Assembly: GCA_016935485.1 (NCBI GenBank)
Contig: JAFGQW010000084.1
Coordinates: 1,450-65,449, forward strand
Direction of reading: 5' to 3'
From: Planctomycetota bacterium
GTDB lineage: Bacteria > Planctomycetota > JAFGQW01
DNA: 64,000 nt
Under the pieces are notes generated by a model. It ran no database searches, was not told the DNA's origin, and saw nothing but the letters and a program-made list of their open reading frames with translations. Both the position numbers and the translations under genes were made by a program. Below are positions 13,908 through 30,583 of the stretch, piece after piece. Each line of letters begins with the position of its first letter. Position 1 is the stretch's first letter.

Positions 13908-16553
13908 TCAATGGACGCGCCCCGCGGGAACCAGGTCGAAGCTCGAGCGATCGCCGTCGGCCCAGAAGCCGATCTCGTCCACCGCAGCCTCCCCCGCGCG
14001 AGCGAACGCCACCTCGAGCGTCCGCGCGGCCCCGGCCGCACCGCGGCCGCGGCCCTCCCGCTCCACGTAGCGCCCGCCGGTCGGCGGCAGGGCCAGGCGC
14101 TCGAGCTCCTCGCCCGCGCTCCCGCGCACGACCAGCGCGCCCTCGACCGTCGCGCGGTAGCGGATCGCGCAGCGATAGGGCCCCGGCGCGGCATCGGCGC
14201 ATTCCGCCCGGACCACGACGCCGGTTCGCCCGGCCGCCAGCACCGCGACGTGGAGATCGCGCGCGGCGAGATCGCCCTGCTTCTCGCCGGCGGCGCCAAG
14301 CCATGTCGCGCCCTTGAAGATCGCCCACGGACCGCGGTCGACCCGGCGCACGCCGACCAGGAGCTCGTGGCCGGCCACCCCGGCCGGAAGGACCGCAATC
14401 AGCCCGCCCTGCCACGCCCCCCCCGGCGCCACCGCATCGACCGTCTCCTGCCCGACGAGCGCGCGCAGCGCTCCTTCCGGCGAGCGCGTGAACAGGAACA
14501 GCTCGGGGCGGTGCGCCGCCGCCGGGTCCCGGTTCCTGAGGGTGAGCCGCACCTGCACGCGCTCGCCGGGGCCCGGCGCGGCCGGCGTGACGTCCACGGA
14601 AGTGAGCGCGATCCACGCACGTTCGATCCAGACCTCCGCCACCGCCGCGGCGGCGCCCGCCCGGCAACGGAAGCACAGCTCGAGCTGGCCGTCGTCGGCG
14701 ATCGCGCCGGAGGGCAGCGAATACGCGAGCTCGCGCGGCCGGAACGTCAGCGGCACGGGCCCGTGGAGGCGGTGCGCTCCCGCCCACAGCTCCTGGTAGG
14801 GCACGAGGCCGAACTTCCCCGCTTCGTGCCCGCCGTAGTACGTGACGCGCACCTGGCAGGGCTGACGCAGGTCGAGATCGCGGTAGCGGAAGCGAAGCTC
14901 CGGAGCACCCCACGCCACGTTCATCTCGGGCACCCGCGCCGTGGAGTAGGTGCCCCACGGCTCGTAGTCGCCGCTCCGGCCCGCCTCCCGCACGAGATGG
15001 GGCGCGGTCCGCGGATGGCCGGCGTCGTCGTAGCGCAGCACCTCGCCGCGGCGGAACTTCGCCTTGGCCGGATGGTAGTGCGGCAGCACCTCGAACCGCA
15101 CGACATAGACCGTGGCGAGCAGCGGCAGCGCCGCAAGCACCGGCGCCGCGATGCGGAATGCCGACACTCCCACCACGCGCCGCACCCCGGCCACCCCGAG
15201 CAACGTCGCCGGCAGGAGGACCGCGTGCAGGTCGCGGCCGGACGGCTGCTGGCCGAGGAGGCTCCAGACCAGCAGCGCCGCGAACGTGACGGCCACCGCC
15301 GCCAGGGCGAACAGCAGCGTGCGCCCGTCGAACCAGCTCAGAGCGGCCGCTGCTTCTTCCTCCTCGTCCGCGCCGGCGGCGGGAGGCACCTCGCCGCCCC
15401 TCGAGGCGGCCATCACGCGGGGATCGTCGGAGAGCACGAAATGCTCGGGCGACGCGAGCCGCGCCGGCGGGCGGCGCCCGCGGCACCAGGCGCGCCACCG
15501 GTCGCGCACCAGCAGCAGAACTCCGCCGGCGGCCACGCCTCCCAGCGCGAGGAAGACCAGCAGCAAGGGGCGGGAGAGGGCGAGCTCCCCGCCGCCGAGC
15601 TCCCCGAGATACCCGCGGACCAGACGCGCCGCGCCGTGGCCGAGGGCGCCTTGGTCCATGGCGAACCCAAGTGGCCGCTCCGGCCCGGCCGTCGTCAGCA
15701 GGAACCTCGGCACAAGCCCGTCGCGGGGAGCGAGATCGGCGAAGCACCACCAGCCCGCGACCGCGACGGCCGCGAGCGTGATCAGCGCCACCGCGCCGTT
15801 CCAGACGACGGCCGGGCGCCACGGCCCCACCGCGGCGAGCCCCACGGCGACGGGCAGCAGCAAGGCCGGGACCAGACCGCTCGGCCGGGTCATGACCGCG
15901 GCGCCGAGCACGAGTCCGAGCAGGACGGCGTGCCACGGCTCGGTCAGGAAACGGCCCGCCAGCGTGCGCACGTAGAGGGCGTAGGCCAGCGTGCCGAGTG
16001 CGGCAACGGCGATGGCATCCGACGCCACCGCGGCCGACAGGACCACGCCCGGAAGGAGCGCCCAGCCCACCGACGCGGCCACCGCGCGCCGGTGCACGCC
16101 GAGCGCCCAGCGCGCCCCGAGGCAAAGCCCGGCGAGCAATACCACGCCGAACAGCAGGCTCACCGCCCGCAGGGGATAGATCGGACTCGGCACGAGCTCG
16201 TCGCGGTCCGCGCGGCGCACGTACTCGATGTCCGTGCGGTAGGGACCGGGCAGGAACGAGAGGCGGCGAACCGCCTCGAGCCGCGGGCTCGCGGGGTCCA
16301 GACGGCCCGGCGCAGCGAACCTCAGCGCCGCTGCGCCCACGAGGTGGTACAGCGAGGGCGGACGCGGCGCGGCGAGCGGCGTGGCGGCGGCATCGGAACC
16401 ACCGGGGCTGTGGAGCCGGATGGCCCGGGCGAGGTGGGCGTCCTCATCCGGGCCCGCGCCGGCCGGGATCGCCAGCGCGAGGTAGCCGCCGAGCAGGACC
16501 AGCGCCAGGAGAGCGGCCGCTGCAAGAAGGCGAGAGACAGCGCGTGGGCTCAT
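13908..16553 (-). CDS. Large polytopic membrane protein, GT-C-fold glycosyltransferase-like (ArnT/PMT_2 family-like), with a ~350-aa C-terminal extracytoplasmic domain.
   Basis: 881 aa. About 12 predicted TM helices. First-loop acidic motif (GPDEDAHLARAIRL) resembles the DE/DD motif of ArnT/PMT enzymes. The soluble C-terminal domain has no recognisable family. Confidence 0.6.
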   Translation of the reverse strand: MSPRAVSRLLAAAALLALVLLGGYLALAIPAGAGPDEDAHLARAIRLHSPGGSDAAATPLAAPRPPSLYHLVGAAALRFAAPGRLDPASPRLEAVRRLSFLPGPYRTDIEYVRRADRDELVPSPIYPLRAVSLLFGVVLLAGLCLGARWALGVHRRAVAASVGWALLPGVVLSAAVASDAIAVAALGTLAYALYVRTLAGRFLTEPWHAVLLGLVLGAAVMTRPSGLVPALLLPVAVGLAAVGPWRPAVVWNGAVALITLAAVAVAGWWCFADLAPRDGLVPRFLLTTAGPERPLGFAMDQGALGHGAARLVRGYLGELGGGELALSRPLLLVFLALGGVAAGGVLLLVRDRWRAWCRGRRPPARLASPEHFVLSDDPRVMAASRGGEVPPAAGADEEEEAAAALSWFDGRTLLFALAAVAVTFAALLVWSLLGQQPSGRDLHAVLLPATLLGVAGVRRVVGVSAFRIAAPVLAALPLLATVYVVRFEVLPHYHPAKAKFRRGEVLRYDDAGHPRTAPHLVREAGRSGDYEPWGTYSTARVPEMNVAWGAPELRFRYRDLDLRQPCQVRVTYYGGHEAGKFGLVPYQELWAGAHRLHGPVPLTFRPRELAYSLPSGAIADDGQLELCFRCRAGAAAAVAEVWIERAWIALTSVDVTPAAPGPGERVQVRLTLRNRDPAAAHRPELFLFTRSPEGALRALVGQETVDAVAPGGAWQGGLIAVLPAGVAGHELLVGVRRVDRGPWAIFKGATWLGAAGEKQGDLAARDLHVAVLAAGRTGVVVRAECADAAPGPYRCAIRYRATVEGALVVRGSAGEELERLALPPTGGRYVEREGRGRGAAGAARTLEVAFARAGEAAVDEIGFWADGDRSSFDLVPAGRVH

Positions 16554-16690
16554 GCGATCGGTTCAACCGTCGGGCAGTCCAGGCGCCGCCGCGCGCCCGG
16601 CACCGGTCGGGTCGAAGGGTACGCGGGCCGCGGCCGGAATGCAACCCGCGATCGCGGCGCCCGCCCGCGCCGGCGCGGCGCCCCGCCGGC

Positions 16691-17833
16691 TCATGCCCGC
16701 CGCACCGCCTGGAACCGCTTCGCCATGCGTTTTTTCACCTCGAACCACCGCATGCGCGCCTGGCGGCGGTAGAAGTCGAAGTTGCGCGGCTCCACGGGAT
16801 TCTCGTTCACGAGAAAGCAGTTCTGGCAGAAGACGTTCAGCTTGCCGGTGTGGAACTGGCGGCGAAGCCGCCGCATGGCCGGCCCGTTCCAGATGCGGCG
16901 CATCGGCTCGCGGAGCGCGTCGCCGAGGTAGATGTCCGTCGGGTAGCAGCACGGAAACACCTCGCCGCCGTGGTTGACTCCGATACTCTGGCCCACGAAC
17001 CAGCAGACCCCGTCGTGGCGGAACTGCAGGAGCGGGGGATCCTCCGGCCGCGGCGGCGGATCGGCGATCACGTTGGGGTAGCCGATCTCGTGGAGGATCA
17101 CCGTCTGGTTGAGACGGCGCGCCTCCGCCGCAGTCTCGGCGACGATCGCGTCGAGCTCGGCCCGCGGCATGGCGGTCAGGATGTCCTCGCCTTCGAGGCC
17201 GGCGTGGGTCTTGAAGACGCGCTGCACGTGCAGCAGATCGAAGCCGAGCTCGCGCACGAAACCGACGAAGGCCGGCAGGAACCGCACGGTGCTCTTCAGG
17301 ATCGCCGCCTGACAGTGGTAGACGAAGGACTTGCCCTCCGCGTCCAGGATCGCCTTCATCATGCGCAGGTTGTCCACCACGCGCTCGTAGCTCGAGCGGA
17401 CCCGGATGCGCTCGTAGCCGTCCTTGTCGGGACAGTCCATGGAGACGTGCAGCAGATCGAAGAGCGCGCGGCTCGCCCGGAAGCGCTCCTCGGTCATGTT
17501 GAAGCACGAGGTGAACATATCGATCTTCACCTGGTAGTGCGCCGCGAGTGCCACGATCTCGTCGAAGTCGTTGATCAGCGGCTCGCCCGCGGCGGTCAGC
17601 ACCACCTTCCTGGCGGCCGGAAAGAGCTGGTGGCAGATGCGCTCCACATCGCGCAGCTTGACGGCGTGGATGGGCACCCCGGTGTGGTGCCAGCAGGTCA
17701 CGCACCGCAGGTTGCAAGCATTGGAGTGGTTGAGGTTCACGATCTCCGGCAGGCTCCGGAACACCTCGCGCTTGTCGCGCCAGTCCTGGCGGAGCCGGCG
17801 GCTGTTCTCGGCCTTGTATTCGAGGAGATCCAT
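16691..17833 (-). CDS. Radical SAM enzyme with a C-terminal SPASM/twitch-type auxiliary Cys cluster domain.
   Basis: Cx3Cx2C motif (CNLRCVTCW) about 40 aa from the chosen start. C-terminal Cys-rich segment (FPCCYPTDIYLGD...CQNCFL). Start chosen at the internal ATG (MDLLEYK), which has a GAGGAAG RBS. The ORF-track ATGATG start at 17932 has a poor RBS. 380 aa. Confidence 0.82.
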   Translation of the reverse strand: MDLLEYKAENSRRLRQDWRDKREVFRSLPEIVNLNHSNACNLRCVTCWHHTGVPIHAVKLRDVERICHQLFPAARKVVLTAAGEPLINDFDEIVALAAHYQVKIDMFTSCFNMTEERFRASRALFDLLHVSMDCPDKDGYERIRVRSSYERVVDNLRMMKAILDAEGKSFVYHCQAAILKSTVRFLPAFVGFVRELGFDLLHVQRVFKTHAGLEGEDILTAMPRAELDAIVAETAAEARRLNQTVILHEIGYPNVIADPPPRPEDPPLLQFRHDGVCWFVGQSIGVNHGGEVFPCCYPTDIYLGDALREPMRRIWNGPAMRRLRRQFHTGKLNVFCQNCFLVNENPVEPRNFDFYRRQARMRWFEVKKRMAKRFQAVRRA

Positions 17834-17965
17834 ACGCACTTCCTCGACCCGGGAATCGTCGAGACCGCGGACCGCCGACTCGTCGCCGGGATCGAGGTCT
17901 CCCCGGCGCCGCGGGGCAGGAGGCTCCATCATACTCCCGGTGCCGCGAAAGGGCCAGGACGGGGC

Positions 17966-18015: not shown

Positions 18016-18056
18016 CGTTCCGAAGCGGAACGGCGTCAGACCCCGGGCGGCCTGAC

Positions 18057-18200: not shown

Positions 18201-20039
18201 ATGCGGCGCGCGCTCGCTCTGGTCGCCTTGCTCGTCCTCGTGGCGCTCCCCCTCCGCGGGGCGCTCGACGTCGGTTTCCTGCAGGACGACTACAACGTCG
18301 CCCAACTGCTGGGCTCCGAGCTCGCCCTGGACGGGCCGACCCTCTACCGCCTCTTCCACCCGCCGGCCGACGAGCAGGACGCGCGACTACGGCCGCTGAC
18401 GTACCTGACCCTCGCCCTGGATCTGGCCGTGTTCGGGCTGGACCCGCTGGCGCTGCACTTGAGCGGGCTGCTCTTCCACCTGATCTCGACGGCCCTGGTC
18501 TTCGTCCTGGCAGGCGTGCTTGCCCCTCGGGCGCGCGCCTTCCCGTGGGTAGCCGCCCTGTTCTTCGGGCTGGCACCGGTGCACGCCGACGCAGTGGCCT
18601 GGCTCGCGGCGCGCGCCGATCCGGTCGCAGGCACGTTCGTGCTCGCCACCCTGCTCGCCTACGTGCGCTACCGGCGCACCGCCCGCCCGCTCGCCGCCGC
18701 GGCTTGCCTGCTGCTCTACGCGGCCGCGCTGCTTTCCAAGGAAGCCGCGGTCATCACCCCCGGCCTCGCCCTCCTCCTGGAGCCGGCGCTCCGCCGGCGC
18801 CCCCGGCCCGGCGGCCTCGTGCCCGCCCTGAGCGGGCTGGGCCTGCTCACCGCCGCCTACCTGCTCTACCGCCGTCATCTCTTCGGCGTCTTCCTCGGCC
18901 ACTACGGAGCCCGCGATGCCGCCTCGTGGTCCGTCGCTCCCGGCGACGTGACGTATGCCGGCCGCATGTTCCTCGCGGACGTTCCCGGGTCCGCCCTCGC
19001 GTCGGTGCTGCTCCTCGCGCCGATCGTCTTCGGAGCCGTCTGCCTTGTCATCGCGCGCCGTCCGCTCCGGGCGCGGTCGATCGCCGCCGGAGCGCTGCTC
19101 TTCCTCCTCGCGATCGTCGTGGCCGTGCTCCCGGTCGCGCCGTTTCTCGGCCAGGCCAGCGGCCGGCACTTCTATCTCGCGGCCGCACCGCTCGCCGGCC
19201 TGCTGGCGGCGGCCGTGACGGTACCGCGGCGGCGCGCGGCGGGAGCAGCGCTCCTGCCGGCCGCGCTCGTGCTGCTGTACGGAGCCGCGTCCGTCCTCGG
19301 GCTCCGGACGCGCATCGAGATGTACGTCGAGGCCAGCGCGATCACCGCAGCGGTGGCCCGAGACCTCGGGGCCCTGCGGGCCGCACACCCCGACGTGGCG
19401 GTCTTCGTGGTGGGCGACCTGCGGAGCGCCTGGCGCCGCGCACCGCTGCTGCACTCGGGCGCGGCCGGACTGGCGCAGCCGCCGTTCCAGCGCGAGCCGG
19501 TGCCGATCCGCGCGCACTTCGCCGGCCAGCCTCGGGACTACCGCTGGGAAGCGTACGTGATCCGCAAGCCGGCCGTCTTCCTTCGCCTGCGGACCGCCGC
19601 GCCGCTGCCGGGGCTCGAGCCCGTGTCGCCCATCCTGCGCTCGCTCCCGCCGCGGGAGGAAGACCCGGCCTACGCGTGCCTCTCTCCCGCCGCCGGCGCG
19701 GCGGTCCGCCTCGACGGCGACACCCCGTTTCGCTTCCGCATCCCCGCCGACCTGCCCTGGCCGATCCGCCTGGTGTTCGCGCTGCCGGGAGACCGGGTCG
19801 CGCCCCTGCTGATCGGAGCAACGAACGTCGTGGAGGAGCCCCCCGCTCCGGACCGGTCCCGCACGCTGGTCTGGCGGCCGCGCCAGGGCGCCCTCGGCCT
19901 GGCGGCGGCGCTGCCGCTCGAGGCCCCGCCCGCCGCGCCGGTGGGGGCGGCCTGGTGGATCGAGGAGGCGGACCTCGAGCACGCCGGCGTCCGGACCGTC
20001 CGCGCGAGCCCCGTCGCGCGATTCGTGGTCCAGCCCTGA
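18201..20039 (+). CDS. GT-C-fold glycosyltransferase-like polytopic membrane protein (PMT/TMTC-like), paralogue 1. It has an N-terminal TM bundle and a ~230-aa C-terminal soluble domain.
   Basis: 612 aa. First-loop motif FLQDDYNV. About 10-11 TM helices. The same architecture and motif are shared with the genes at 22140 and 24539. Confidence 0.6.
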   Translation: MRRALALVALLVLVALPLRGALDVGFLQDDYNVAQLLGSELALDGPTLYRLFHPPADEQDARLRPLTYLTLALDLAVFGLDPLALHLSGLLFHLISTALVFVLAGVLAPRARAFPWVAALFFGLAPVHADAVAWLAARADPVAGTFVLATLLAYVRYRRTARPLAAAACLLLYAAALLSKEAAVITPGLALLLEPALRRRPRPGGLVPALSGLGLLTAAYLLYRRHLFGVFLGHYGARDAASWSVAPGDVTYAGRMFLADVPGSALASVLLLAPIVFGAVCLVIARRPLRARSIAAGALLFLLAIVVAVLPVAPFLGQASGRHFYLAAAPLAGLLAAAVTVPRRRAAGAALLPAALVLLYGAASVLGLRTRIEMYVEASAITAAVARDLGALRAAHPDVAVFVVGDLRSAWRRAPLLHSGAAGLAQPPFQREPVPIRAHFAGQPRDYRWEAYVIRKPAVFLRLRTAAPLPGLEPVSPILRSLPPREEDPAYACLSPAAGAAVRLDGDTPFRFRIPADLPWPIRLVFALPGDRVAPLLIGATNVVEEPPAPDRSRTLVWRPRQGALGLAAALPLEAPPAAPVGAAWWIEEADLEHAGVRTVRASPVARFVVQP

Positions 20040-21261: not shown

Positions 21262-21846
21262 TTGGCCATGATCGACCGCTTCCAGGTGAAGGGCGCCGGC
21301 TCCTCGGCGCTCGTGGTGATCGACGTGCAGACGCGGATGGTGCAGGCGCTCGCGCCCAAGGTCGTGCGCCGCAACGTCGGCAACATGGCGCTGCTCCTCG
21401 AGGCCGCACGCGCCCTCGCGATCCCGATCCTCGTGACCGAGCACTACCCGCAGGGGCTCGGCCCGACGATCGAGTCCCTCGGGCCGCTGCTCGCGGGCGC
21501 GCGCACCCTGGAGAAGATCGTCTTCAGCGGCACCGGCGCGCCGGGCTTCCGCGAGGCGCTGCGCGCGACCGGCCGGGAGCACATCGTGCTGATCGGCACC
21601 GAGACCCACGTCTGCGTGGCCCAGACCGCGCTCGACCTCCTGGCCGAGGGCTACCACGTGCACGTCCCCTCGGACGCCGTGCTGTCGCGCTTCACGGACG
21701 ACTGGCAGGGCGGGCTGGCCTTCATGCGCCAGGCGGGCGCCGTGGTCACGCGCACCGAGACGCTGGTTTTCCAGTGGCTGGAACGGGCCGGCACGGAGGT
21801 CTTCCGGCGCCTGTCGCCCCGCATCAAGAACCGCAGCGCCGAGTGA
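21262..21846 (+). CDS. Isochorismatase-family (cysteine hydrolase) protein.
   Basis: 194 aa. SALVVIDVQ at the N-terminus. Catalytic Cys context (IGTETHVCVAQTALD). Lys and Asp positions are conserved. Confidence 0.78.
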   Translation: MAMIDRFQVKGAGSSALVVIDVQTRMVQALAPKVVRRNVGNMALLLEAARALAIPILVTEHYPQGLGPTIESLGPLLAGARTLEKIVFSGTGAPGFREALRATGREHIVLIGTETHVCVAQTALDLLAEGYHVHVPSDAVLSRFTDDWQGGLAFMRQAGAVVTRTETLVFQWLERAGTEVFRRLSPRIKNRSAE

Positions 21847-22139
21847 ACGGGCCCGCGCCGGACTGACTTCCCCGGGTTTCGCCGCGAGGTTCGGGTTCGT
21901 GGGGCGCGAAGCCGGCTCCAATCGGCGATGCCACCGACGCTCCGCCGCGCGGACCTCGGCAGGAAGATCCGCGAGAACGGGAAGCGGTTCCGGCACGGGC
22001 CCCAAGGTCCGGGCCGCGCCGTATTGACTCCCCGGCCCCGCCCGCGTACATTCCCCCCCTGACGCGGGGGGACTCGCCGGCGGCGCGAACCGCCCGCGCG
22101 GCCAGACCGGGTCACCCGCCGCCCCAGGAACCCATTGGC

Positions 22140-24542
22140 ATGACCGACAAGCCCCACCCCGCCGGCCGGACGACCGTCGCGCTGGCCGCCATCGCCGTGA
22201 TGATCATAGCCGCCGTCGCCTACCTGCCGGCCCTCGACGACTCGTTCTTGCAGGACGACTTCCTCCTCGTCGGGCAGTTCTTCACGGACACCGGGACCTT
22301 CGAGCTCCCCCGCCAGCCCGCGCTGACCTTTCCCACCGGGTTCCTTCCGTTCTGGACGCACGTTCTCGACAGCTACCTCTGGGGCGCCCACGCCGTCGGC
22401 CACCGCATCACCAGCCTGCTCGTGCACGTGCTCGCCGCGCTGCTGGTCTTCGTGCTGGTCCGCAGAGTCGCCGGCGGCCGGACCCTGGTGGCATTCCTCG
22501 CCGCCGTCTTCTTCGTCCTCTCACCGCTGCACCTCAACGCCGTCCACTGGATCTCGGGACGCTCGCTCACGCTCGCGATCGTCTTCCTGCTCCTCGCCGC
22601 GCTGGCGGCGACCCGCCGCCGGCCCGCGCCGGTGCTTTCCGCCACGGCCTACCTGGCCGCGCTGCTCTGTCACCCCGCCGCCTTCACCGCGCCGCTCGTC
22701 GCGCTGCTGGTCGACGTGGTGGCCGGGCGCGGCGCCTGGCGCGGCCGCCTGCTGACCATCCACCTGCCGCTGCTCGCGCTGATGGCCGCTTACATCGTGT
22801 TCCAGTCCACGACCGGCGAGCGCCTCTGGCACACCCGGAACGTCCGCGCCGCGCTCGCGCCTGCGGTCCTCCTCGACACGCTCGCGCGCCTCATCGTCCC
22901 GCTCAACGAAGCAATCACCAACCCGGCCAAGGCCCCGCTGCTCAAGTGGGGCGTGCTGCTGGGTCTCCTTCCCCTGCAGATCCTGGTGCTGATCGTCCGC
23001 CGGGCAGCGCCGCCGCGTACGTTCTGGGTGGGGCTGATCTGGTTCGTGGTGATGCTGATCCCGATCCTGCCGTCGGCGCGCCTCGGGACGGAGCTGGCCG
23101 ACTCGCGCGTCTTCTACGGCGTGGTGCCCCCCCTTGCTCTGATGCTCGCGGCGCTGTTCCTCGCCGACACAGCGGTCTTCCGCCCCTCCGCCGGACGCGC
23201 CGCGGACCGCCGCGCGCTCGCCCGCGCCACGGTGTTCGCGCTGGTATTCGCGGTCTCGCTTGTCCTGGCGCTGGTCAAGAACGGCCAGGCCTACGCGGGC
23301 GCCGGCCGCCTCGTGCGCCACGTGCAAGACGCTGCGCTCGAAGCCGCGCGCGGGGAATCCGCGGATTCGTGGATCTACCTGATGGAGCCTCCGAGTGCCT
23401 ACGCCGGCGCGCCGGTGTTCGCGACGGGCCTCAAGCGGGCGCTCGCCCCGCCGTTCAGGACCGCCGCCGAAGCCCGCCGGATCGGCGTGGTGCACGTGCG
23501 CGACATGGCGCCGCTGCTCGAGCGCCTGCGCGGGGTCCACCCGCCGCTCGTCGTGCTGTGGATGCACGCCGCCGGGCTGGAGCCGCGCCGTCCGTTCGCG
23601 CGGATCTCGCCGCTGTTCCCGGCAACCGGCGAGCCCGACGAGCCGTTCCTGCCGCCACGGTTCGCCGGCGCGGAGCTCGCCACGTGGCGGCCAGACAGCG
23701 GGCTGGTCGGCGCGGCGGACGAGCGGGGTTTCGTGGGCCAGACCTCGAGCGAGGATCCCTGGCTGCTGTCACCACCGATGGTGATCCCGAGCGACTGGAT
23801 CGAGGCGGTCAGCGTGCGGATGAGCGTGCACGGCAGCCGGGAGCCCGTGCTCCCGGTGGATCTCTTCTGGGCCGAGCTGTCCCGGCCGGACGCCTTTCGC
23901 CCCGAGCGCTCCTGCCGCCAGTTCGTGCCCACGACCGGCGCGATGGAGACCCTGACTTTCGCGCTTTCGCCGCCGGACGGCGCCCGGCCGCCCGAGCGGT
24001 TTCTCGCGCGGCTCCGGCTCGATCCGCCCCCCGGGCCGGCCGCGGTGCACATCGAGTCGATCGCGCTCGTCCCGGGGCCCGGGTGCCCCTGCGCGCAGCG
24101 CGTGGCGGCATCCTGGGAGGGCCCGGAGCTCGCCGGCTGGACGGTCGCGCCGGGCACCACCGGAAGGCTCGAGAATAGCGACCTCGTGCTGCGGACCCAG
24201 GGCGTGGACCCCTACGCCGTCTCTCCGGTTCTCGACCTTCCGGCGGCCGCCCTGCGGGGGATCGAGGTCGCGCTGCGCGTGGACGCCGCGAGCACCGAGG
24301 CGGCGATCTACTGGGCCACGGACACTCCGGAAGGCTTCTGCGAGGAACAGCGCCTGCCCTTCACGGTCGCCGCCGGCGACGGCCAGTTCCACCGCTACAC
24401 GCTGTGGTTCCAGGAACGCGCTCGGCTGGCGCCGGACACGCGGATCCGGGCCATTCGCGTCGATCCGATGGCCGGTCCCGGCACGGCCTGGATCCGGCTC
24501 GTGAAGCTGTACCAGGACGCCCTCGACAGAGCACGACGATGA
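22140..24542 (+). CDS. GT-C-fold glycosyltransferase-like polytopic membrane protein (PMT/TMTC-like), paralogue 2, with a ~290-aa C-terminal soluble domain.
   Basis: 800 aa. First-loop motif SFLQDDFLLV. Multiple TM helices. The C-terminal domain is unrelated in sequence to paralogues 1 and 3. Confidence 0.6.
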   Translation: MTDKPHPAGRTTVALAAIAVMIIAAVAYLPALDDSFLQDDFLLVGQFFTDTGTFELPRQPALTFPTGFLPFWTHVLDSYLWGAHAVGHRITSLLVHVLAALLVFVLVRRVAGGRTLVAFLAAVFFVLSPLHLNAVHWISGRSLTLAIVFLLLAALAATRRRPAPVLSATAYLAALLCHPAAFTAPLVALLVDVVAGRGAWRGRLLTIHLPLLALMAAYIVFQSTTGERLWHTRNVRAALAPAVLLDTLARLIVPLNEAITNPAKAPLLKWGVLLGLLPLQILVLIVRRAAPPRTFWVGLIWFVVMLIPILPSARLGTELADSRVFYGVVPPLALMLAALFLADTAVFRPSAGRAADRRALARATVFALVFAVSLVLALVKNGQAYAGAGRLVRHVQDAALEAARGESADSWIYLMEPPSAYAGAPVFATGLKRALAPPFRTAAEARRIGVVHVRDMAPLLERLRGVHPPLVVLWMHAAGLEPRRPFARISPLFPATGEPDEPFLPPRFAGAELATWRPDSGLVGAADERGFVGQTSSEDPWLLSPPMVIPSDWIEAVSVRMSVHGSREPVLPVDLFWAELSRPDAFRPERSCRQFVPTTGAMETLTFALSPPDGARPPERFLARLRLDPPPGPAAVHIESIALVPGPGCPCAQRVAASWEGPELAGWTVAPGTTGRLENSDLVLRTQGVDPYAVSPVLDLPAAALRGIEVALRVDAASTEAAIYWATDTPEGFCEEQRLPFTVAAGDGQFHRYTLWFQERARLAPDTRIRAIRVDPMAGPGTAWIRLVKLYQDALDRARR

Positions 24543-26863
24543 GCACTGAGCCACCGCGGACCGCGAGCACGACCGTCTACACCGCGCGCTACCTCCTCTA
24601 CTCCACCGCCGGACTGCTCGCTGCGGTGCTCGTCGGCTACGCTCCCGTGCTGGCCAACCCCTTCCTGAGCGACGACCTCAACTTCCGGGTGTTCTTCCGC
24701 GGCGCCGAGCTCGACTGGGCGCGGATCCTCGGCGAGCTGTGGAGCGGCTGGGGCGGCCTGGTGGGCGCCGACTACTACCGGCCGCTGCTCACCGCGTCGG
24801 TGGTCGTGGACTACCTCGCCTGGGGAGCGAACCCGTTCGGCTGTCATCTGACCAACGTGCTGCTTCACACGCTCAACGCCACGCTGGTCGCGCACATCAT
24901 CATGCGGATCGCCGGCCCGGGAAAGCGCTACCCGGCGCTCCTTGGCGCGCTGGTCTTCGCCGTGCATCCCGTACACCCCGAGGCCGTTGCCTGGATTGCC
25001 GGCCGGGTCGATGTGCTCAGCGCCTTGTTCTTCCTGCTCACGGTGCGCTGCTACCTCGCCTATCGCTGGACCGGCCGGCGGCGCCACCTGATCGCCTCCC
25101 TGGTCGCGCTCGGCCTTGGGCTCGGCTCGAAGGAGTCGGCGGTGATGGCGCCGGCGGTGCTCGTCGCGCTCGACCTCGGGCTCAAGCTCGCGCGCGGCAC
25201 GCCGCGCTGGGGTCTCGGCGCCCGGACAGCGGTGCTCGCGCCGCTGGCCCTCGTTGCCGGCTACGTGGTGCTGCGCAAGCTGGTGCTCGGGAGCGTCGCG
25301 GGCAGCCAGGACCTACTGGCCCCCTACGCATCGGCCGGCGCGCTCGTCGCGACCCTCAAGCAGACGAGCATGAAGCTCTTCCTCCTGGTCGCGCCGGCCA
25401 ACCCCGCCGCGACGGGTCGCACGGGCGCCGCACTCTTCCAGGGGGCGGTGATCCTGATGATGCTGCTGCCGTTCCTCGCGCTGCTCACCCACGGCAAGCG
25501 CACCATTCCGGGGCCGCTTCTCGGCGGCGCGCTGATCCTCTTTCCCCTCGCGCTCGTGAGCCACATCCTGGTCGATCCCGACAACCTCGCCAACAGCCGG
25601 GTGCTCTACCTGCCGGCCGCGGGGTTCGTCGTGATGCTCTACTCGGCGCCGTGGGATCCGCGGGTCCGGCACGAGCTCCGCCGCCTCGGAGCGGCGCAGA
25701 TGGCCGTGCTGTCGCTGCTGATCGCCGGCGCCTACTTCGTCATGCTCCGCCTGAATCTCCGCCCGTGGACCGAGGCCGGTCGCATCATGAACACGCTCGT
25801 CCGCGAGGTCGACCGCGTCGAGGCCGACACGCCCGGCCACCGCAAGATCGTGGTGAAGGGGCTGCCCGACGTCCACCAGGGCGCCTACGTGGCGCGCAAC
25901 GGCTTCGTCTTTGCGCTGGTCCGCCCGTTCCACCACCGCGACATCACGCGGGTCTTCCCGGTGCTGGACTACTTCTACGGCCGCGACCCTGGAATGCTGC
26001 GCGCCGTGCACGGGGACCGGACGCGCATCGTGCTCTGGGACCTGGCGCGCCACCGACTGCTCGACCTGCCGCCGCCCCAGGAGGCCACCCACCAGATGAG
26101 CGCAGAGGACGGGCGCGCCTGGGCCGATCTGGCCGGCGGCGCGTGGACGCCGGAGCCCGGGCTCGAGCGGCAGGTGCACCCCGACGGCGGAGTGACGCTC
26201 GTCGCGCGGCGCGAGGGCGCCGGCCTGCGCGGCCCGGTGATGCGCATCTCCCCCGAGGCACTGCCGGCGCTCCGCTTCCGGCAGGCCGGCACGGCGCAGC
26301 TCGCGCTGGGCTGGTCCACGGCCGCCGAGCCCGACGTGTTCCCGACGAGCCCGGTGATGACGTTCCCGCCGCACGCGGGCGAGCGCACGGTGGCCCTGGT
26401 GAACCACGCCACCTGGTACCTGCCGGCCGCCCCGCCGGTGGGCCGACTGCGCCTTTCGGTCTGGCCGCAGAATACACCGCTGGTGCTCACCGACTTCACC
26501 CTCGTCCGGAGACTGCCGCGCCTGCCGCTCGCCATCGAGACCGAACCGCTGCTCCCCGAACCGGGAGCGCCCCTGGTGCTGCCGCTGCTGCGCTGCCCCT
26601 ACACGCACTTCAAGATCGTGATCCTCAACCCGGCCGCCCCGCACGCCGTGGCGATCGCGCGCCCGGCGGAGGCGGACACGCCGCTCGTGGTGCCGGCCGC
26701 CGGGCTCGCGCACCTCCACACCGTGGCCTGGGCGCTCGGAGGCTTCGAGGCCCTGCTGTATGTGGACGCGGTCGAGCCCGACCTGAACCCCCTCACCACC
26801 CGCGCGCGCAGCCGCCTCTTCACGGTGCGCTTCGCGGGCGCGGTGCGCCCCGGGCGGCGGTAA
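24539..26863 (+). CDS. GT-C-fold glycosyltransferase-like polytopic membrane protein (PMT/TMTC-like), paralogue 3. It is translationally coupled to paralogue 2.
   Basis: Internal Met of ORF 24404..26863. Its ATG overlaps the upstream stop (ATGA). First-loop motif PFLSDDLNFRVF. 774 aa. Confidence 0.6.
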   Translation: MSTEPPRTASTTVYTARYLLYSTAGLLAAVLVGYAPVLANPFLSDDLNFRVFFRGAELDWARILGELWSGWGGLVGADYYRPLLTASVVVDYLAWGANPFGCHLTNVLLHTLNATLVAHIIMRIAGPGKRYPALLGALVFAVHPVHPEAVAWIAGRVDVLSALFFLLTVRCYLAYRWTGRRRHLIASLVALGLGLGSKESAVMAPAVLVALDLGLKLARGTPRWGLGARTAVLAPLALVAGYVVLRKLVLGSVAGSQDLLAPYASAGALVATLKQTSMKLFLLVAPANPAATGRTGAALFQGAVILMMLLPFLALLTHGKRTIPGPLLGGALILFPLALVSHILVDPDNLANSRVLYLPAAGFVVMLYSAPWDPRVRHELRRLGAAQMAVLSLLIAGAYFVMLRLNLRPWTEAGRIMNTLVREVDRVEADTPGHRKIVVKGLPDVHQGAYVARNGFVFALVRPFHHRDITRVFPVLDYFYGRDPGMLRAVHGDRTRIVLWDLARHRLLDLPPPQEATHQMSAEDGRAWADLAGGAWTPEPGLERQVHPDGGVTLVARREGAGLRGPVMRISPEALPALRFRQAGTAQLALGWSTAAEPDVFPTSPVMTFPPHAGERTVALVNHATWYLPAAPPVGRLRLSVWPQNTPLVLTDFTLVRRLPRLPLAIETEPLLPEPGAPLVLPLLRCPYTHFKIVILNPAAPHAVAIARPAEADTPLVVPAAGLAHLHTVAWALGGFEALLYVDAVEPDLNPLTTRARSRLFTVRFAGAVRPGRR

Positions 26864-26896
26864 CGGTCCGCCGTGTCGCCGCACGCGGCGGCGGGA

Positions 26897-28216
26897 TCAG
26901 CGCCCGGGCCGCCCCGTCGCGACCAGACGCTCGACGTACGCGAATGCCGCGGCGACGCAGTGGTCGGTGTTGAAGTACTCCATGCGGCCGGTGCGGCCGC
27001 AGGTGTCGAACCCGATCCCGTCGAGGTAGGCGCGCACGCGCGCGATGTTCGCGGGGAAGTCCCGCCCGTGGTAGGCGTAGGCGTGATCCGCGCGGCTCCA
27101 GGCCGTGGCCGCGACCCGGCGGCGGTCGAGGACTTCCGCCTCCTCGAGGCGCGCCAGGAGCGCCGCGAGAGTCGCCTCGGGATCGGGCGGCCGATCGCCC
27201 CGGAACGTCACCTCGCACATCACCGAGGAGTGGCCGGCCGGGCAGTTCCCGGGACTGTAGTTCCCGAGGTGGGTCAGCCGGTTCACGGGGCCGTTCTCGG
27301 GGTGCGGCAGGTAGACCCAGGAGTACGGCACCCGGCCGGGGTGGTCGAGCCCGACCAGAAAGCACAGGACGTGGACGTACTCGAGCGCGCGGGCCGCCGC
27401 CGCCGCCGCGGGGTCCATCCCGTCGAGGAGGTCCGGCACGCCGCGCAGCGGCAGCGTCGAGACGACGCGATCGAAGCGGTCCCCGTTGACCTCCCAGCGG
27501 CCGGCGCGGCCCCGGACGTGCGCGACGGGAGTGGCGAGCCGGATGCGGTCCCGGATCGGCGCCGCGGTGGCGTCGGCCAGCGCCTGCATGCCGCCCCTCA
27601 GCGGGTAGCCGAACTGGAGCTGGTGGGTGTAGCCCTCGGTGCGGATGCCGACCGCGCTGCGGATGACGTCGTCGGGCGGCGCATCGGGCACGCGGTCCGC
27701 CACCCAGTCGAAGGACATGTCCCGCAGATCGGATTTCCAGATCTTCTCGTTGTAGGGGATCATGAACGACTCGGCGATGCCGTCGCCGAACCGCCAGTAG
27801 ATCCACTCGCGCAGGCTCGACGGCCGCGGCGCCGTGCCCTTCTCGCGCGCCAGATACGCGTTCACGTAGCCCCGGAGACACCGGAAGTTGTCCTCCGGCG
27901 AAAGGTCGCCGAGCCCGTTCTCGAAAGGGTAGTTGACGTAGCGGCCGTGATAGTAGATGCGGGTCTGCCGCCGGCTCTCGACCACCGCGCCCCCGAGCCG
28001 GTCCCAGAGGTGGCGCCGGAGCGCCGGATCGCGCGTGTAGAGGATGTGCCCGCCGGCGGTGTCCCAGGTGAAGCCGGCGCGCTGCTCGCTCTTCAGGAGC
28101 CCGCCGACCCGGTCGCTCCGCTCGAAGAGGACGAAGTCCCACTCGGGCGCACGCCGGGCGAGCTGGTAGCCGATCGTGAGGCCGGTGATGCCGGCGCCGA
28201 GAATCGCGATTCTCAA
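26897..28216 (-). CDS. FAD/NAD(P)-binding oxidoreductase of the amine-oxidase / UDP-galactopyranose-mutase / protoporphyrinogen-oxidase-like superfamily.
   Basis: N-terminal Rossmann motif (MRIAILGAGITGLTIGYQLARR, GxGxxG, then acidic ERSDRVGG). 439 aa. Sits beside the glycosyltransferase-like genes, so a UGM-like role is possible but unproven. Confidence 0.65.
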   Translation of the reverse strand: MRIAILGAGITGLTIGYQLARRAPEWDFVLFERSDRVGGLLKSEQRAGFTWDTAGGHILYTRDPALRRHLWDRLGGAVVESRRQTRIYYHGRYVNYPFENGLGDLSPEDNFRCLRGYVNAYLAREKGTAPRPSSLREWIYWRFGDGIAESFMIPYNEKIWKSDLRDMSFDWVADRVPDAPPDDVIRSAVGIRTEGYTHQLQFGYPLRGGMQALADATAAPIRDRIRLATPVAHVRGRAGRWEVNGDRFDRVVSTLPLRGVPDLLDGMDPAAAAAARALEYVHVLCFLVGLDHPGRVPYSWVYLPHPENGPVNRLTHLGNYSPGNCPAGHSSVMCEVTFRGDRPPDPEATLAALLARLEEAEVLDRRRVAATAWSRADHAYAYHGRDFPANIARVRAYLDGIGFDTCGRTGRMEYFNTDHCVAAAFAYVERLVATGRPGR

Positions 28217-28583: not shown

Positions 28584-29765
28584 ATGACCGCTCGCGCTCC
28601 GGTCGTGCTCTTCGGTCTGCTGTTCTTCCTGATCGCGACCGACCAGTTCTGTATCCTGCCGCTCCTCCACGTCATCGGCCGGGACCTGCATCTGAGCACG
28701 CTCGAGCTGTGTCTCCTGGTCACCGCCTACCACGGGTTTGCCGGCGCCTTCGGGCTGTTCGTCGGTCCGATGATCGACCGCCGCCGGCACGGCGGGGTCT
28801 TCCTGATCGGGCTGGTGCTCTTCCTCGGCGCGAGCGTGCTCACCACGGTGGCGCAGTCCCTGGCGGTGCTCCTCACCGTGCGCGCGCTGGCCGGCCTGGG
28901 CACGAGCGGCGTCGGCGTCGGCGTCTCGAGCTTCATCTCGACCCTGGTGCCGCCGGCCCAGCGGCGGGTGGTGAACGGGCGCGTGATGGTCGGCGCGCTG
29001 CTGGGACTGGTGCTGGGACCGCTCGCGTGCGGCGCGATCGCGCTCAAGCAGGACTGGCGGTGGATCTACGCGTTCCTGGCGGCGGTGACCCTGCCCACCG
29101 TCCCGATCGTGGCCGCGCTGGTCCGCAACCTGCCGCTGCCCGCCTACCGCCGCCGCCTGGTGCTGGCCCGCGGCTACGCGAGCCTGATGGTGCGACTCGA
29201 GACCGGCAGCGGCATCCTGGTGATGTTCCTGTTCACCGGGGCCATCGGCGGCATCATGGCCATCCTGGGGCTGTGGCTCTTCCGGTTCCCCGACGTCGAC
29301 GTCTTCGACGTCACCAAGGTGTTCGCCGCCGGCGGCCTCGGGCTCTACGCGGGCGGCAACCTCAGCCAGGGGCTGGCGCACCTGATCGGCCGCAAGCGCC
29401 TCGTGGTGCTGTCGAGCCTGCTGCTGCTGCTCTGCTTCTTCTTTCTCTTCTGCATCGACGAGTGGGTCGGGCTCGTCTACACCGCGTTCTTCTTCACCGC
29501 GCTGGTCGAGTCGGTGCGGCGCGGACCGCTCCAGGGCACGCTGGTCGCCATGGTGAAGACGCGGGAGATGCCGACCTACACGCTGCTCAAGAACGGCGCC
29601 GGCCACGTGGGCACGGCCGTGATGGTGCCGATCATGGGCATCCTGCTCGAGGCGGGAGGCAACATCGAGATGCCCATCCTGCTGGCGGTCGCGCTCACGA
29701 TCTCGGCCACGCTGGCCTACTTCTTCTTCGTGCGCCCACCCGTTCACGAACCGGACCGCACCTGA
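28584..29765 (+). CDS. MFS-type transporter.
   Basis: Internal Met of ORF 28362..29765. Twelve hydrophobic segments. MFS loop 2-3 motif-like (GPMIDRRRHGGVF). 393 aa. Confidence 0.78.
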   Translation: MTARAPVVLFGLLFFLIATDQFCILPLLHVIGRDLHLSTLELCLLVTAYHGFAGAFGLFVGPMIDRRRHGGVFLIGLVLFLGASVLTTVAQSLAVLLTVRALAGLGTSGVGVGVSSFISTLVPPAQRRVVNGRVMVGALLGLVLGPLACGAIALKQDWRWIYAFLAAVTLPTVPIVAALVRNLPLPAYRRRLVLARGYASLMVRLETGSGILVMFLFTGAIGGIMAILGLWLFRFPDVDVFDVTKVFAAGGLGLYAGGNLSQGLAHLIGRKRLVVLSSLLLLLCFFFLFCIDEWVGLVYTAFFFTALVESVRRGPLQGTLVAMVKTREMPTYTLLKNGAGHVGTAVMVPIMGILLEAGGNIEMPILLAVALTISATLAYFFFVRPPVHEPDRT

Positions 29766-30583
29766 CCGCCGGCGCCCCGGACAAACGCCGCCATGCCCTT
29801 GAGCTCCCGGCGAAGCCGCGGCAGCCACCACGCCCGCATCGGCACCGGGCCCACCTCCACGCTGATGTTGCCCGCGTACCGGTCCGCCAACAGCCGCGCC
29901 AGCAGCGCCGCGAGCGGCAGCACGCCGGTGCCGGGCACCTGGTGGTGGACGAAGTGGTTCCGCAGCAGACCGTTGTCGACGAGCGCCGACCCGGGGCGGT
30001 AATCGCTCAGGTGGACGTTCTCCAGACGCGGGCCGAACTGCGCCGCAGCATCGAGGAGATCGTGCCCGAAGGACGCCGCGTGCGAGGTGTCGAGCGTGAG
30101 ACCGAGGTCGTACTCCCGGGCGAAGCGCACGAGCACGGCGAGGTCGGTGAAGGGGTTGCGGTCATCGGCGCGCCGCTTTCGGCCGAGGTTCTCGAGCGCG
30201 ATCCGCACGTCCGCGCCCGCGGCGTGGCGCGCCTCCTCGATGCGGCGCCGGAAGCGGCGCGCCTGCGCGTCCCCGGGGTCGGCGCAGCGCCGGGGCGGGT
30301 GGGCGACCACGCGGGGGGCGCCGAGCGCGCGCGCCAGCCCGACCGCGCGGCAAAGCCCGCCGCGCCGTTCGCGCCACCCGGGAATCCAGACCAGCGGCGG
30401 GTGCACAGCCGCGATCTCGAGCCCGTGGTCGGCCACCAGCGCCCGCACGCGGCCGGGCCCGCGCACGACGACCTCGGGAGCGACCACCAGCTCCAGGCTC
30501 TCGAACCCGGCCTCGGCCGCCAGGCGGCACACCGCCTCGAGCGGCAAGCCGTAGAGCGCGCCGGTCGACAGGCTGATCCTCAT
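29744..30583 (-). CDS. Sugar phosphate isomerase/epimerase (xylose-isomerase-like TIM-barrel, AP-endonuclease-2 fold).
   Basis: Start at the internal ATG (MRISLSTGAL) with a GGGAGGGGAG RBS. Motifs LELV, ALENL and HLSD fit metal-binding TIM-barrel isomerases. 279 aa. The 3' end overlaps the MFS gene by 22 nt (convergent). Confidence 0.68.
   Translation of the reverse strand: MRISLSTGALYGLPLEAVCRLAAEAGFESLELVVAPEVVVRGPGRVRALVADHGLEIAAVHPPLVWIPGWRERRGGLCRAVGLARALGAPRVVAHPPRRCADPGDAQARRFRRRIEEARHAAGADVRIALENLGRKRRADDRNPFTDLAVLVRFAREYDLGLTLDTSHAASFGHDLLDAAAQFGPRLENVHLSDYRPGSALVDNGLLRNHFVHHQVPGTGVLPLAALLARLLADRYAGNISVEVGPVPMRAWWLPRLRRELKGMAAFVRGAGGQVRSGS

Follow-up and report, generated by a model that had tools for sequence, protein, structure and literature searches.

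Four divergent GT-C membrane proteins, one with a conserved loss of donor-site motifs, in a gene neighbourhood of an uncultured planctomycete

Background

The animal O-mannosyltransferases TMTC1-4 (family GT105 of CAZy) have abundant relatives in bacteria. No characterised bacterial TMTC relative was found in the literature surveyed, and to our knowledge there is none, nor any with an established acceptor or donor. Thioredoxin-fold proteins (Ost3/Ost6, or Tusc3/MagT1) are subunits of the eukaryotic oligosaccharyltransferase, and multiple paralogues of the membrane glycosyltransferases of C fold (GT-C) are common in Planctomycetota. Here we describe a 64-kb stretch of contig JAFGQW010000084.1 from a planctomycete (the window, meaning the whole of the DNA analysed), in which genes for four large GT-C membrane proteins (G1, G3, G6 and G7) lie among accessory genes (G2, G4, G5 and G8 to G10). 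What is new is a conserved loss of donor-site motifs in G6, a thioredoxin-fold protein without CxxC (G4) that is linked to G3, and a CarboxypepD_reg protein gene upstream of G6 in relatives. No description of a TMTC-like subfamily without tetratricopeptide repeats (TPRs), of a degenerate paralogue or of a dead-thioredoxin partner surfaced in the literature, although no search was aimed at these.

TMTC enzymes share a set of motifs: DD in the first loop (M1), (SHKS)YRP (M2), RxD (M3), KE(T/Q)xxT (M4), DW in loop EL4 and (E)RxxY (M7) (PMC7801869). TMTC1-4 are reported to act on the EC domains of cadherins and TMEM260 on IPT domains, both of which are folded beta-sandwiches (PMC11292533, PMC10214176). 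DUF2142 proteins are polytopic membrane proteins encoded in streptococcal rhamnose-glucose polysaccharide loci, and DUF2142/WpsJ-type enzymes decorate envelope glycans outside the membrane by way of lipid-linked sugars (PMC9746298).

Results and discussion

Four GT-C proteins of two branches

Genes were called from third-position GC across the window, because a GC content of 72% makes raw lists of open reading frames (ORFs) useless. An earlier note, made from the letters of this DNA, had picked out four polytopic proteins with an acidic first-loop motif and a large soluble C-terminal region. These are real and lie at 13.9-26.9 kb: G1 (13908-16553, - strand; 881 aa, first loop GAGPDEDAH), G3 (18201-20039, +; 612 aa, FLQDDY), G6 (22140-24542, +; 800 aa, FLQDDF) and G7 (24539-26863, +; 774 aa, FLSDDL). 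G1 and G7 are 100% identical to the hypothetical proteins JXQ29_03800 and JXQ29_03830 of a planctomycete metagenome-assembled genome, and the spacing of the locus tags fits the seven genes G1 to G7 with none between.

G3, G6 and G7 are mutual paralogues (BLASTP E from 6e-23, for G3 against G7, to the order of 1e-10, with 6e-10 for G3 against G6). G1 shows no BLASTP similarity to them and is related at profile level only, so that the four paralogues first proposed come down to three. The C-terminal domains, at first thought mutually unrelated, are not entirely so, since the periplasmic segment that comes first past the last transmembrane helix is common to G3, G6 and G7 and the alignment of G6 with G7 reaches about residue 600-614.

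A database search with G7 yielded nine full-length orthologue clusters (55-69% identity), followed by hundreds of bacterial membrane+TPR proteins labelled protein O-mannosyl-transferase or TPR protein. PF13231 (PMT_2) or PF08409 (DUF1736) is present in many of the latter, and G7 also matches fish TMTC2 (E 1.2e-13). G7 itself scores 18.3 bits against PMT_2 (cut-off 26.1), G3 and G6 have no Pfam match at PMT_2, PMT or DUF2142, and neither DUF1736 nor any Pfam TPR model matches G3, G6 or G7.

D45, D46 and P82 of G7 are invariant in an alignment of 56 sequences (the two aspartates likewise in a set of 29 homologues), in which conservation is 90% or higher at G96, P99, H103, N106, H110, F140, H143, P144, V150, K198, R246, P286 and Y357. 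The full motif set of G7 reads DD (D45-D46), YYRP (Y80-R81-P82), GRVD (R156-x-D158), SKES (K198-E199) and SRVLY (R354-x-x-Y357). That of G3, conserved in five orthologues, reads DD (FLQDDY), RLRP, ARAD, SKEA and GRHFY, and the first-loop DD is kept in every orthologue of G3, G6 and G7. The DW/DY motif of loop EL4 is missing from G3 and G7, in which the aligned segment is APANPAA/PLNEAITNP; TMTC2 and some bacterial homologues read S(F/A/S)D(W/Y)S at this position. As TPRs and the DW of DUF1736 are lacking and the Pfam scores lie below threshold, G3, G6 and G7 are placed within GT-C and not as members of TMTC.

In the AlphaFold2 model of G7 (pLDDT 86.6, pTM 0.86) the C-terminus consists of an alpha/beta region (about 431-530) and a beta-sandwich (about 540-770), with no TPR. 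The top Foldseek matches of the full-length model in the PDB were EmbA/B/C (E 1.7e-7 to 7e-6), and AglB, Pmt4, PglB, ArnT, STT3, DPY19, AftA and Pmt1/2 were matched as well; GT-C enzymes made up 24 of the 26 matches at E ≤ 0.001. The model also matches glycoside hydrolases and carbohydrate-binding modules (CBM6/29/61/86), apparently via its C-terminus. Through paralogy with G7, G3 and G6 would share the GT-C fold. The nearest relatives of all three are thus bacterial and eukaryotic enzymes of TMTC/PMT_2 type, with the TPRs replaced by a CBM-like beta-sandwich C-terminus.

G1 has a membrane domain (about 1-493) followed by a beta-sandwich C-terminus of about 390 aa (about 494-881), which matches the malectin-like ectodomains of ANXUR/FERONIA and many modules of CBM6/22/35/36/61 type. 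In its first-loop motif (G-P-D36-E37-D-A-H40), E37 and H40 show no variation among 57 sequences, and the conservation of D36 is at least 90%. A word-indexed search found three orthologues only, and an exhaustive HMMER profile search found 812 relatives at E ≤ 0.001. In the set scanned against Pfam (G1, its 3 orthologues and 53 N-terminal profile matches; n = 57), PMT_2 was matched by 48 sequences, PMT by 32 and DUF2142 by 23, the match of G1 itself to DUF2142 (PF09913) being N-terminal and weak (15.7 bits, cut-off 30.1). When the G1 and G7 families were compared by hhalign (57- and 29-sequence profiles) the probability was 97.1%, with E 6.5e-11 over 265 membrane-core columns. Comparison values for G1 were 22.2 with Pmt4, 21.9 with ALG12, 21.5 with ArnT, 21.4 with Pmt2, 19.0 with AglB and 18.3 with both STT3B and AftB. 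G1 is a divergent protein of a PMT/ArnT/PMT_2/DUF2142-like branch distinct from that of G3, G6 and G7, with an unusual tandem beta-sandwich C-terminus.

Single-sequence phmmer searches of the PDB with G7 and G1 gave nothing useful. A PDB profile search with a TPR-free alignment of 29 G7 sequences gave no significant match, and one with the 56-sequence alignment was swamped by TPR proteins because homologues carry TPRs. These profile searches being uninformative, assignment to GT-C draws on transitive Pfam matches, hhalign and predicted-fold searches, by which all four large membrane proteins are GT-C glycosyltransferases. The division first suggested, of three TMTC/PMT-like proteins and one ArnT/PMT_2-like protein, is borne out by the invariant DD of the former and the near-invariant D-E-x-x-H of the latter, and conservation of the acidic first-loop residues across orthologues, proposed as a check on it, was found.

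G6 is a degenerate paralogue coupled to G7

G6 and its four orthologues (L001:7593-9989, L010:7578-9989, L098:195-2573 and L099:1617-4010; about 50% pairwise identity) retain DD and RxxY, the other motifs being replaced. M2 has changed from YRP to FLP (GFLPF), with loss of Arg, and HPxHxE has become (C/S)(P/S)LHxN, with Asn in place of Glu. Asp of M3 is lost, RxD having become R(S/G/T)(L/V), as is the Lys-Glu pair of M4, in which SKE has become (C/S)HP. The replacement residues are themselves conserved, being of the same kind in 5/5 orthologues. In TMTC/ArnT-type enzymes the replaced positions contact sugar, metal and donor phosphate (PMC7801869), so G6 is probably non-canonical and possibly non-catalytic. 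The pattern suggests that its subfamily consists of pseudo-enzymes or of enzymes with altered chemistry.

The stop codon of G6 and the start codon of G7 overlap in ATGA at 24539-24542, as the earlier note had seen, which indicates co-translation. G6 also lies directly upstream of G7 in L001, L010, L098 and L099, and it is possible that G6 acts as a non-catalytic partner of G7.

Gene order in related genomes

Nine independent contexts were read in relatives; rSAM stands for the radical SAM gene G2, IMS for a DinB-type polymerase gene and CPDreg for a CarboxypepD_reg repeat protein gene. The Joint Genome Institute (JGI) contig of 3300042731 has purF-G1-rSAM/IMS-G3-G4-G5-CPDreg-G6 and onwards, which is the order of the window plus two inserted genes. 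L010 has rSAM/G3-G4-CPDreg-G6-G7/G8/MFS, where MFS is a transporter gene of the major facilitator superfamily, and L001 has G3-G4-G5-CPDreg-G6-G7 followed by unrelated genes. On the 1.18-Mb contig L002 the order is G1-transglutaminase-rSAM-x/IMS-G3-G4-G5-G7, then four unrelated genes, then G8-G10-G11-TgpA. Three contexts come from ERZ24794672: L097 (G1-purF-CPDreg, no rSAM), L007 (G4-G3-IMS/rSAM) and L098 (G6-G7/G8/MFS). L099 has CPDreg-G6-G7/G8, and in L004/L005 rSAM stands alone amid lipid-A-type and fatty-acid genes.

Three pairs stay together wherever they are visible: G3-G4, G4-G5 and G6-G7. G3 and G4 are adjacent in the window, L001, L002, L006/7, L010 and the JGI contig, G4 following G3 wherever the downstream side is seen. 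G4 and G5 are adjacent in six contexts (the window, L001, L002, L017, L018 and the JGI contig), with G5 absent from L010, and G6 and G7 in five. G8 usually comes after G7: the two adjoin in the window, L010, L098 and L099, and 5 kb separate them in L002. In three relatives G8 is in turn followed by the MFS gene G9. In the window and L010 the rSAM gene and G3 are divergently oriented, and in L002, L006 and the JGI contig rSAM is near G3; a DinB-type polymerase gene separates the two in three relatives, and in L004/L005 rSAM has no GT-C neighbour at all. G1 tracks purF, with which it sits in L097. G10 and G11 form another block, and in L002 G8, G10 and G11 are detached from G7. The earlier picture of one integrated module, taking in the radical SAM and sugar-metabolism genes, is therefore not supported, since rSAM and G1 are separate from the core in some relatives.

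Identities between the window and L002 are 72% for rSAM, 65% for G8, 63% for G11, 57% for G7, 56% for G10, 50% for G5, 44% for G3 and 40% for G4, and those between the window and L097 are 74% for purF and 53% for G1. The gene order recurs only in a narrow clade of uncultured Planctomycetota (about 10 protein clusters). A scan of GTDB genomes found G7 orthologues in only two species representatives, the other five loci being ordinary Acidobacteriota TMTC-like genes without the accessory genes.

In L017 (1-10709) G4 is 84% identical and the first 87 codons of G5 are 90% identical to those of the window, after which similarity ends. The ORF list alone suggests a changed pattern downstream; there is either a break-point inside G5 or a chimeric assembly, and the downstream context was not used.

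With so narrow a distribution there may be no system at all. The four GT-C proteins would then be independent envelope enzymes, three of them products of local tandem duplication, and every other association would be inherited synteny, an explanation that we regard as possible, though not probable. Orthologues are limited to the few close protein clusters and two GTDB representatives just named, GC content is uniform along the window, purF, the dinB-type IMS gene, ABC_ATPase and TgpA are interleaved with positions equally conserved, and some relatives have break-points between the core and rSAM, G1 or G8-G11. Set against this, adjacency in the pairs G3-G4, G4-G5 and G6-G7 outlasts every rearrangement seen, neighbouring insertions and deletions included, and the linked core proteins are the fastest evolving in the region (in L002, G3 and G4 against rSAM and G8). 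The co-translation indicated by the ATGA overlap and the apparent restriction of the full-length G4 family to the neighbourhood of G3/G5 also argue against independence. For genes outside the three tight pairs synteny alone is a plausible explanation. Co-conservation of the neighbourhood, proposed as a check, was thus found for part of it, but in a narrow clade only, where plain synteny suffices.

G4, G5 and the CarboxypepD_reg proteins

The families of the accessory genes were confirmed by Pfam and NCBIfam scans. G4 (20163-21236, +; 357 aa) is a secreted protein in which a signal peptide is followed by a helical N-domain and a domain of thioredoxin fold (AhpC-TSA 1.3e-11; Thioredoxin_8). Although these fold-family matches are significant, the CxxC active site of TlpA/ResA-type proteins is absent. 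G4 reads HFWTGPRNA at the site, and neither it nor its four orthologues have Cys there (5/5), in agreement with its first description as redox-dead. A metagenome scan with the G4 alignment gave 80 loci, 78 of which were generic TlpA/ResA-like thioredoxin domains without GT-C neighbours. Only L017 and L018 held G4 orthologues, followed by G5 in both, and the full-length G4 family appears to be narrow and to occur only beside G3/G5.

A second protein of G4-like layout, with a helical N-domain and an AhpC/TSA-Redoxin fold, is encoded at 51668-52936 (+). It too lacks CxxC (YFWSRHMPT), and its thioredoxin domain shares 28% identity with that of G4 (E 2e-5). Thioredoxin-fold proteins without CxxC may thus recur as a family in the periplasm of this lineage.

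G5 (21268-21846, +; 192 aa) belongs to the isochorismatase family (Pfam Isochorismatase 5e-35) and is of cysteine hydrolase type, its closest solved relatives being of MAR1/ISOC type (5e-23). By eye, it keeps the Asp/Lys/Cys pattern in VVIDVQ, EKIVFS and THVCV.

In all four relatives in which the region upstream of G6 is visible (L001:5352-6845, L010:6050-7399, L099:3-1439 and the JGI contig) there is a CPDreg gene. Its product, of 450-497 aa, is anchored in the membrane by its N-terminus and contains a low-complexity linker as well as three to four CarboxypepD_reg domains. This long form is missing from the cluster in the window, where the 293-bp gap between G5 and G6 (21847-22139, +) holds only a promoter-like, sigma-70-like site (22024-22052); from its place in this genome the gene seems to have disappeared, by loss or by a move elsewhere. 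The one related gene in the 64 kb is G00 (10844-11953, -), beside purF, which encodes a membrane-anchored short paralogue with a Pro-rich linker and three CarboxypepD_reg domains, transthyretin-like beta-sandwiches (Pfam 3.1e-27, 3 stretches). It is 52% identical to the purF-adjacent gene of L097 and 32% to the long form in L001. As TMTCs and TMEM260 glycosylate folded beta-sandwich domains, the CarboxypepD_reg protein is an attractive lead for an acceptor, and G00 may, speculatively, be another candidate.

These genes raise the possibility of domain-specific protein O-glycosylation, in which the TMTC-like enzymes would modify beta-sandwich envelope proteins, notably the CarboxypepD_reg protein, with G4 as a substrate holder like Ost3/Ost6. 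In its favour, the nearest relatives by sequence are of TMTC type and bear the annotation protein O-mannosyltransferase, eukaryotic TMTC2 among them; the CPDreg gene lies between G4/G5 and G6 in the four relatives, with the shorter paralogue 2 kb from G1 in the window and also present in L097; and G4 is secreted, thioredoxin-fold, CxxC-less and strictly beside G3. However, the TPRs thought to serve the protein acceptors of TMTCs are absent, the C-terminal domains resemble carbohydrate-binding modules, and the clusters of the window and L002 have no long CPDreg gene. The link to a substrate is one of adjacency only, and the likeness to Ost3/6 is an analogy; we consider protein O-glycosylation rather unlikely.

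C-terminal domains, G8 and the donor pathway

G8 (26897-28216, -; 439 aa) is convergent with G7, has a moderate tie to the cluster and encodes a flavoenzyme of the UDP-galactopyranose mutase (UGM)/amine-oxidase family. The UGM-like nature first ascribed to it is confirmed by phmmer matches to the UGMs of T. cruzi (1.8e-30) and A. fumigatus (6.9e-30). It aligns with UGMs at GGHI (the GGH loop), YPFENG, NRLT and GRTGRMEYFNTDH, and the C-terminal GR..Y.N.DH is present. FMRPYN of UGMs reads FMIPYN in G8, with Ile at the position of the flap arginine (R182 of AfUGM), and the substrate may accordingly differ from UDP-Galp.

Together with the C-terminal domains, G8 might point to decoration of a glycan or glycolipid. 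The GT-C proteins would add side-chain sugars at the periplasmic face to a polysaccharide, a peptidoglycan-linked polymer or a lipid A/LPS-like molecule, as do ArnT and enzymes of GtrII, DUF2142/WpsJ and Emb/Aft type, with the CBM-like C-termini binding the acceptor and G8 perhaps supplying a furanose. EmbA/B/C, the best structural matches of full-length G7, consist of a GT-C domain and C-terminal CBMs, the C-terminus of G1 matches CBMs and malectin-like domains, and G8 adjoins G7 in four contexts. DUF2142 is also reported alongside GT2 and UGM genes in rhamnose-glucose cell-wall loci (PMC9746298). Yet the beta-sandwich fold is not specific to carbohydrate, UGM products are nucleotide sugars for cytoplasmic glycosyltransferases and not direct donors for GT-C enzymes, and G8 lacks the flap Arg found in characterised UGMs of eukaryote type. 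Wzx/Wzy, an ABC exporter, an initiating phosphotransferase and a GT2 lipid-sugar synthase are also absent from the window. On balance glycan or glycolipid decoration is a tenable but tentative explanation. Sequence does not decide between a protein and a glycan or glycolipid acceptor, of which we consider the latter slightly more likely.

No gene for a GT2 polyprenyl-phosphate-sugar synthase or a GtrA-like protein is present among the scanned called genes of the window, which thus lacks the GT2 and small flippase of the three-component systems (GtrA/B/X, ArnC/EF/T). The only gene of the MOP family, at 56.1 kb and initially taken for a Wzx-like flippase, belongs to the MurJ family (29.5 bits, cut-off 27.4) and lies beside rlmN.

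The radical SAM enzyme and other neighbours

G2 (16691-17833, -) encodes a radical SAM/SPASM protein (Pfam Radical_SAM 50 bits, cut-off 29.5; SPASM 45.9 bits, cut-off 21.5). The start is probably ATG 17833, which gives 380 aa and agrees with the NCBI record and most orthologue clusters; with the alternative ATG 17932 the protein would have 413 aa. The CX3CX2C motif is made up of Cys40/44/47, and as the C-terminal SPASM/twitch-type domain has only 5 Cys, two auxiliary clusters are not assured. Orthologues in 15 clusters are 62-86% identical, which makes them the most conserved proteins of the region. The next relatives are at 25%, one of them (L008) in a cluster of sugar-modification type with multiple radical SAM genes, GT2 and UDP-glucose dehydrogenase, and another distant homologue (P0142) is fused to a GT2 domain.

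A pathway like those of ribosomally synthesized and post-translationally modified peptides, in which G2 would mature a peptide or protein for glycosylation by the GT-C proteins, is very improbable. A SPASM domain is typical of radical SAM enzymes that act on peptides, the best PDB match of G2, a weak one, is SkfB (1.7e-4), and rSAM is divergent from or near G3 in five contexts. However, no plausible small precursor ORF was found beside G2, including in the 368-bp gap between G2 and G3, which weakens the peptide-modification element of the earlier proposal. The NCBIfam maturase models all score far below cut-off (63 bits at best, against 170), and the Cys count of the C-terminal domain is low. 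Moreover, rSAM occurs away from GT-C genes in L004/5 or with the DinB-type gene intervening, and its distant homologues are in sugar-modification clusters or fused to GT2, not beside peptides.

G9 (28584-29765, +; 393 aa) is an MFS transporter (Pfam MFS_1 1.2e-33) with matches to DHA-type efflux-like proteins, the NCBIfam efflux families all being far below cut-off. G10 (29744-30583, -), once read as a sugar-phosphate isomerase, is a generic xylose-isomerase-like TIM barrel of the AP_endonuc_2 family (5.3e-28) with no specific sugar assignment; its best NCBIfam matches (CbiR, QuiC and IolE) are all far below cut-off, and it is probably a mere syntenic neighbour.

Proposed function of the cluster

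The explanation that we favour, with moderate confidence, is of a vertically inherited chromosomal neighbourhood encoding four periplasm-facing GT-C proteins from two PMT/ArnT-type branches, which would use polyprenyl-phosphate sugars. The functional core would be G3-G4-G5-(CarboxypepD_reg protein)-G6-G7, G4 and G5 being the only non-glycosyltransferase genes tightly linked to it. In G3, G6 and G7 the acceptor-binding TPR solenoid of TMTCs would have been replaced by a periplasmic region of alpha/beta and CBM-like beta-sandwich domains. G3 and G7 keep all the catalytic and polyprenyl-phosphate-binding residues of TMTC/ArnT/PMT-type enzymes (DD, YRP, RxD, KE and RxxY), and each would transfer a single sugar from an undecaprenyl- or polyprenyl-phosphate donor, a donor predicted from family membership, to an envelope acceptor. 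G6 would most likely be a non-catalytic partner of G7, or one of altered specificity, analogous to Pmt1-Pmt2 or EmbA-EmbB dimers. G1 would be a separate PMT_2/DUF2142-like GT-C that travels with purF. Evidence that G8, G9 or rSAM is coupled to the core in function is weak, and for G10 there is none; that the surrounding genes form one dedicated system is supported only in part.

Several points weigh against this explanation. Taken alone, each of the four large membrane proteins scores below the Pfam gathering thresholds, and G3, G6 and G7 below those of NCBIfam as well, membership being transitive via homologues, and Foldseek TM-scores are low (0.2-0.36) because the queries are multi-domain. 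No polyprenyl-phosphate-sugar synthase or dedicated flippase is encoded within the 64 kb, so the donor pathway was not seen. All contexts come from one fairly shallow clade, where even unselected gene order could have lasted. G7 occurs without G6 in L002, so their partnership is not obligatory, and with the promoter-like site between G5 and G6 and gaps of 124 to 293 bp, G3-G7 are not necessarily a single operon. Finally, every glycosyltransferase activity assigned here is predicted from sequence or model.

A more specific version, in which a G6-G7 heterodimer (G6 being a pseudo-enzyme or presenting the acceptor) and G3/G4 would O-glycosylate folded CarboxypepD_reg beta-sandwich proteins of the envelope, is decidedly a long shot. 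It would make the cluster a bacterial counterpart, and perhaps an evolutionary relative, of the animal TMTC/TMEM260 pathways, with the acceptor recognised by CBM-like domains in place of TPRs.

With two motif-complete enzymes, a degenerate paralogue, a dead-thioredoxin partner and, in relatives, a candidate substrate, this compact conserved set may make the question of acceptor and donor testable. If G6 and G7 do form a heterodimer of catalytic and pseudo-catalytic subunits, the principle of Pmt1-Pmt2 and EmbA-EmbB extends to a new branch of GT-C; if these are only syntenic enzymes that decorate the envelope, they belong to ordinary planctomycete envelope biology.

Other genes of the window

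The GC fraction varies between 0.69 and 0.77 within the window as a whole and between 0.69 and 0.76 in the region of G1 to G10. With composition so uniform there is no compositional island as once supposed, and with flanking housekeeping genes conserved, horizontal transfer was also rejected. No Rfam match was found over 10-33 kb.

The rest of the window has ordinary chromosomal content, mostly housekeeping. It encodes an ECF sigma factor, a VIT-VWA protein, RtcA, Usp, an ABC1 kinase, a purF-type amidotransferase, a MoxR ATPase, a TgpA-like transglutaminase, ABC_ATPase, enzyme I (EI) and two EIIA of the phosphotransferase system (PTS), MurJ, RlmN, GlgC, QueF and a class-I tRNA synthetase. The two PTS EIIA-2 genes and that for PTS enzyme I are divergent from the MurJ-family gene (56137-57768), the whole block spanning 52976-57768 and being followed by rlmN. 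Proteins with a transglutaminase core recur: L002 has a small one (1679-2614) between rSAM and G1, and the TgpA-like protein (32383-35802 in the window) follows the ABC_ATPase gene in the window and L002 alike.

A membrane protein encoded at 46037-48058 (+) has C-terminal TPRs by Pfam and a membrane domain without family match. It had been proposed as a fifth member of the set and is not counted as such, because hhalign gave a probability of <3% to both GT-C profiles. At 48084-51125 (-) there is a fusion of 1013 aa that joins a Ser/Thr protein kinase, a TPR-like region and a C-terminal FGE-sulfatase (formylglycine-generating-enzyme-like) domain.

Comparison with known systems

The closest likeness is to TMTC1-4 and the bacterial membrane+TPR homologues (PF13231/PF08409), with which the membrane domains of G3, G6 and G7 are homologous (E 1e-24 to 1e-11). 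The first-loop DD is shared, as are YRP, RxD, KE and RxxY, found in G7 and G3 at the TMTC positions. In contrast to TMTC1-4, G3, G6 and G7 have no TPRs but a C-terminus of alpha/beta and beta-sandwich domains, G3 and G7 have neither DW/DY nor a DUF1736 match, and G6 is without three donor-site motifs.

G1 resembles Pmt1-Pmt2/Pmt4 (GT39) and ArnT (GT83) in its first-loop D-E pair, which corresponds to D55/E56 of ArnT and D77/E78 of Pmt1 (PMC7801869), and pairing of GT-C paralogues has a precedent in the Pmt1-Pmt2 heterodimer. Unlike the Pmt proteins, G1 has no MIR domain but about 390 aa of CBM/malectin-like beta-sandwiches, and it falls below every Pfam threshold. It also recalls enzymes of DUF2142/WpsJ type from Gram-positive rgp/cwps loci, DUF2142 being matched by 23/57 sequences of its set, but its own score is far below the cut-off, and it lies outside any polysaccharide locus with no partner GT2 or flippase nearby.

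In EmbA/EmbB/EmbC and AftD, as in G7, a GT-C membrane domain is followed by a periplasmic CBM-like beta-sandwich, and EmbA-EmbB is a heterodimer of adjacent paralogues, like that proposed for G6 and G7. However, G7 is only 12-14% identical to these enzymes, with low TM-scores and another context of the acidic loop, and no AcpM, DPA (decaprenylphosphoryl-arabinose) synthesis or arabinogalactan genes are near it.

Lastly, G4 recalls Ost3/Ost6 by analogy only: an extracytoplasmic thioredoxin-fold protein is tied to a GT-C enzyme, G4 being always beside G3. It differs from them in having neither CxxC nor a transmembrane bundle and in having an extra helical N-terminal domain.

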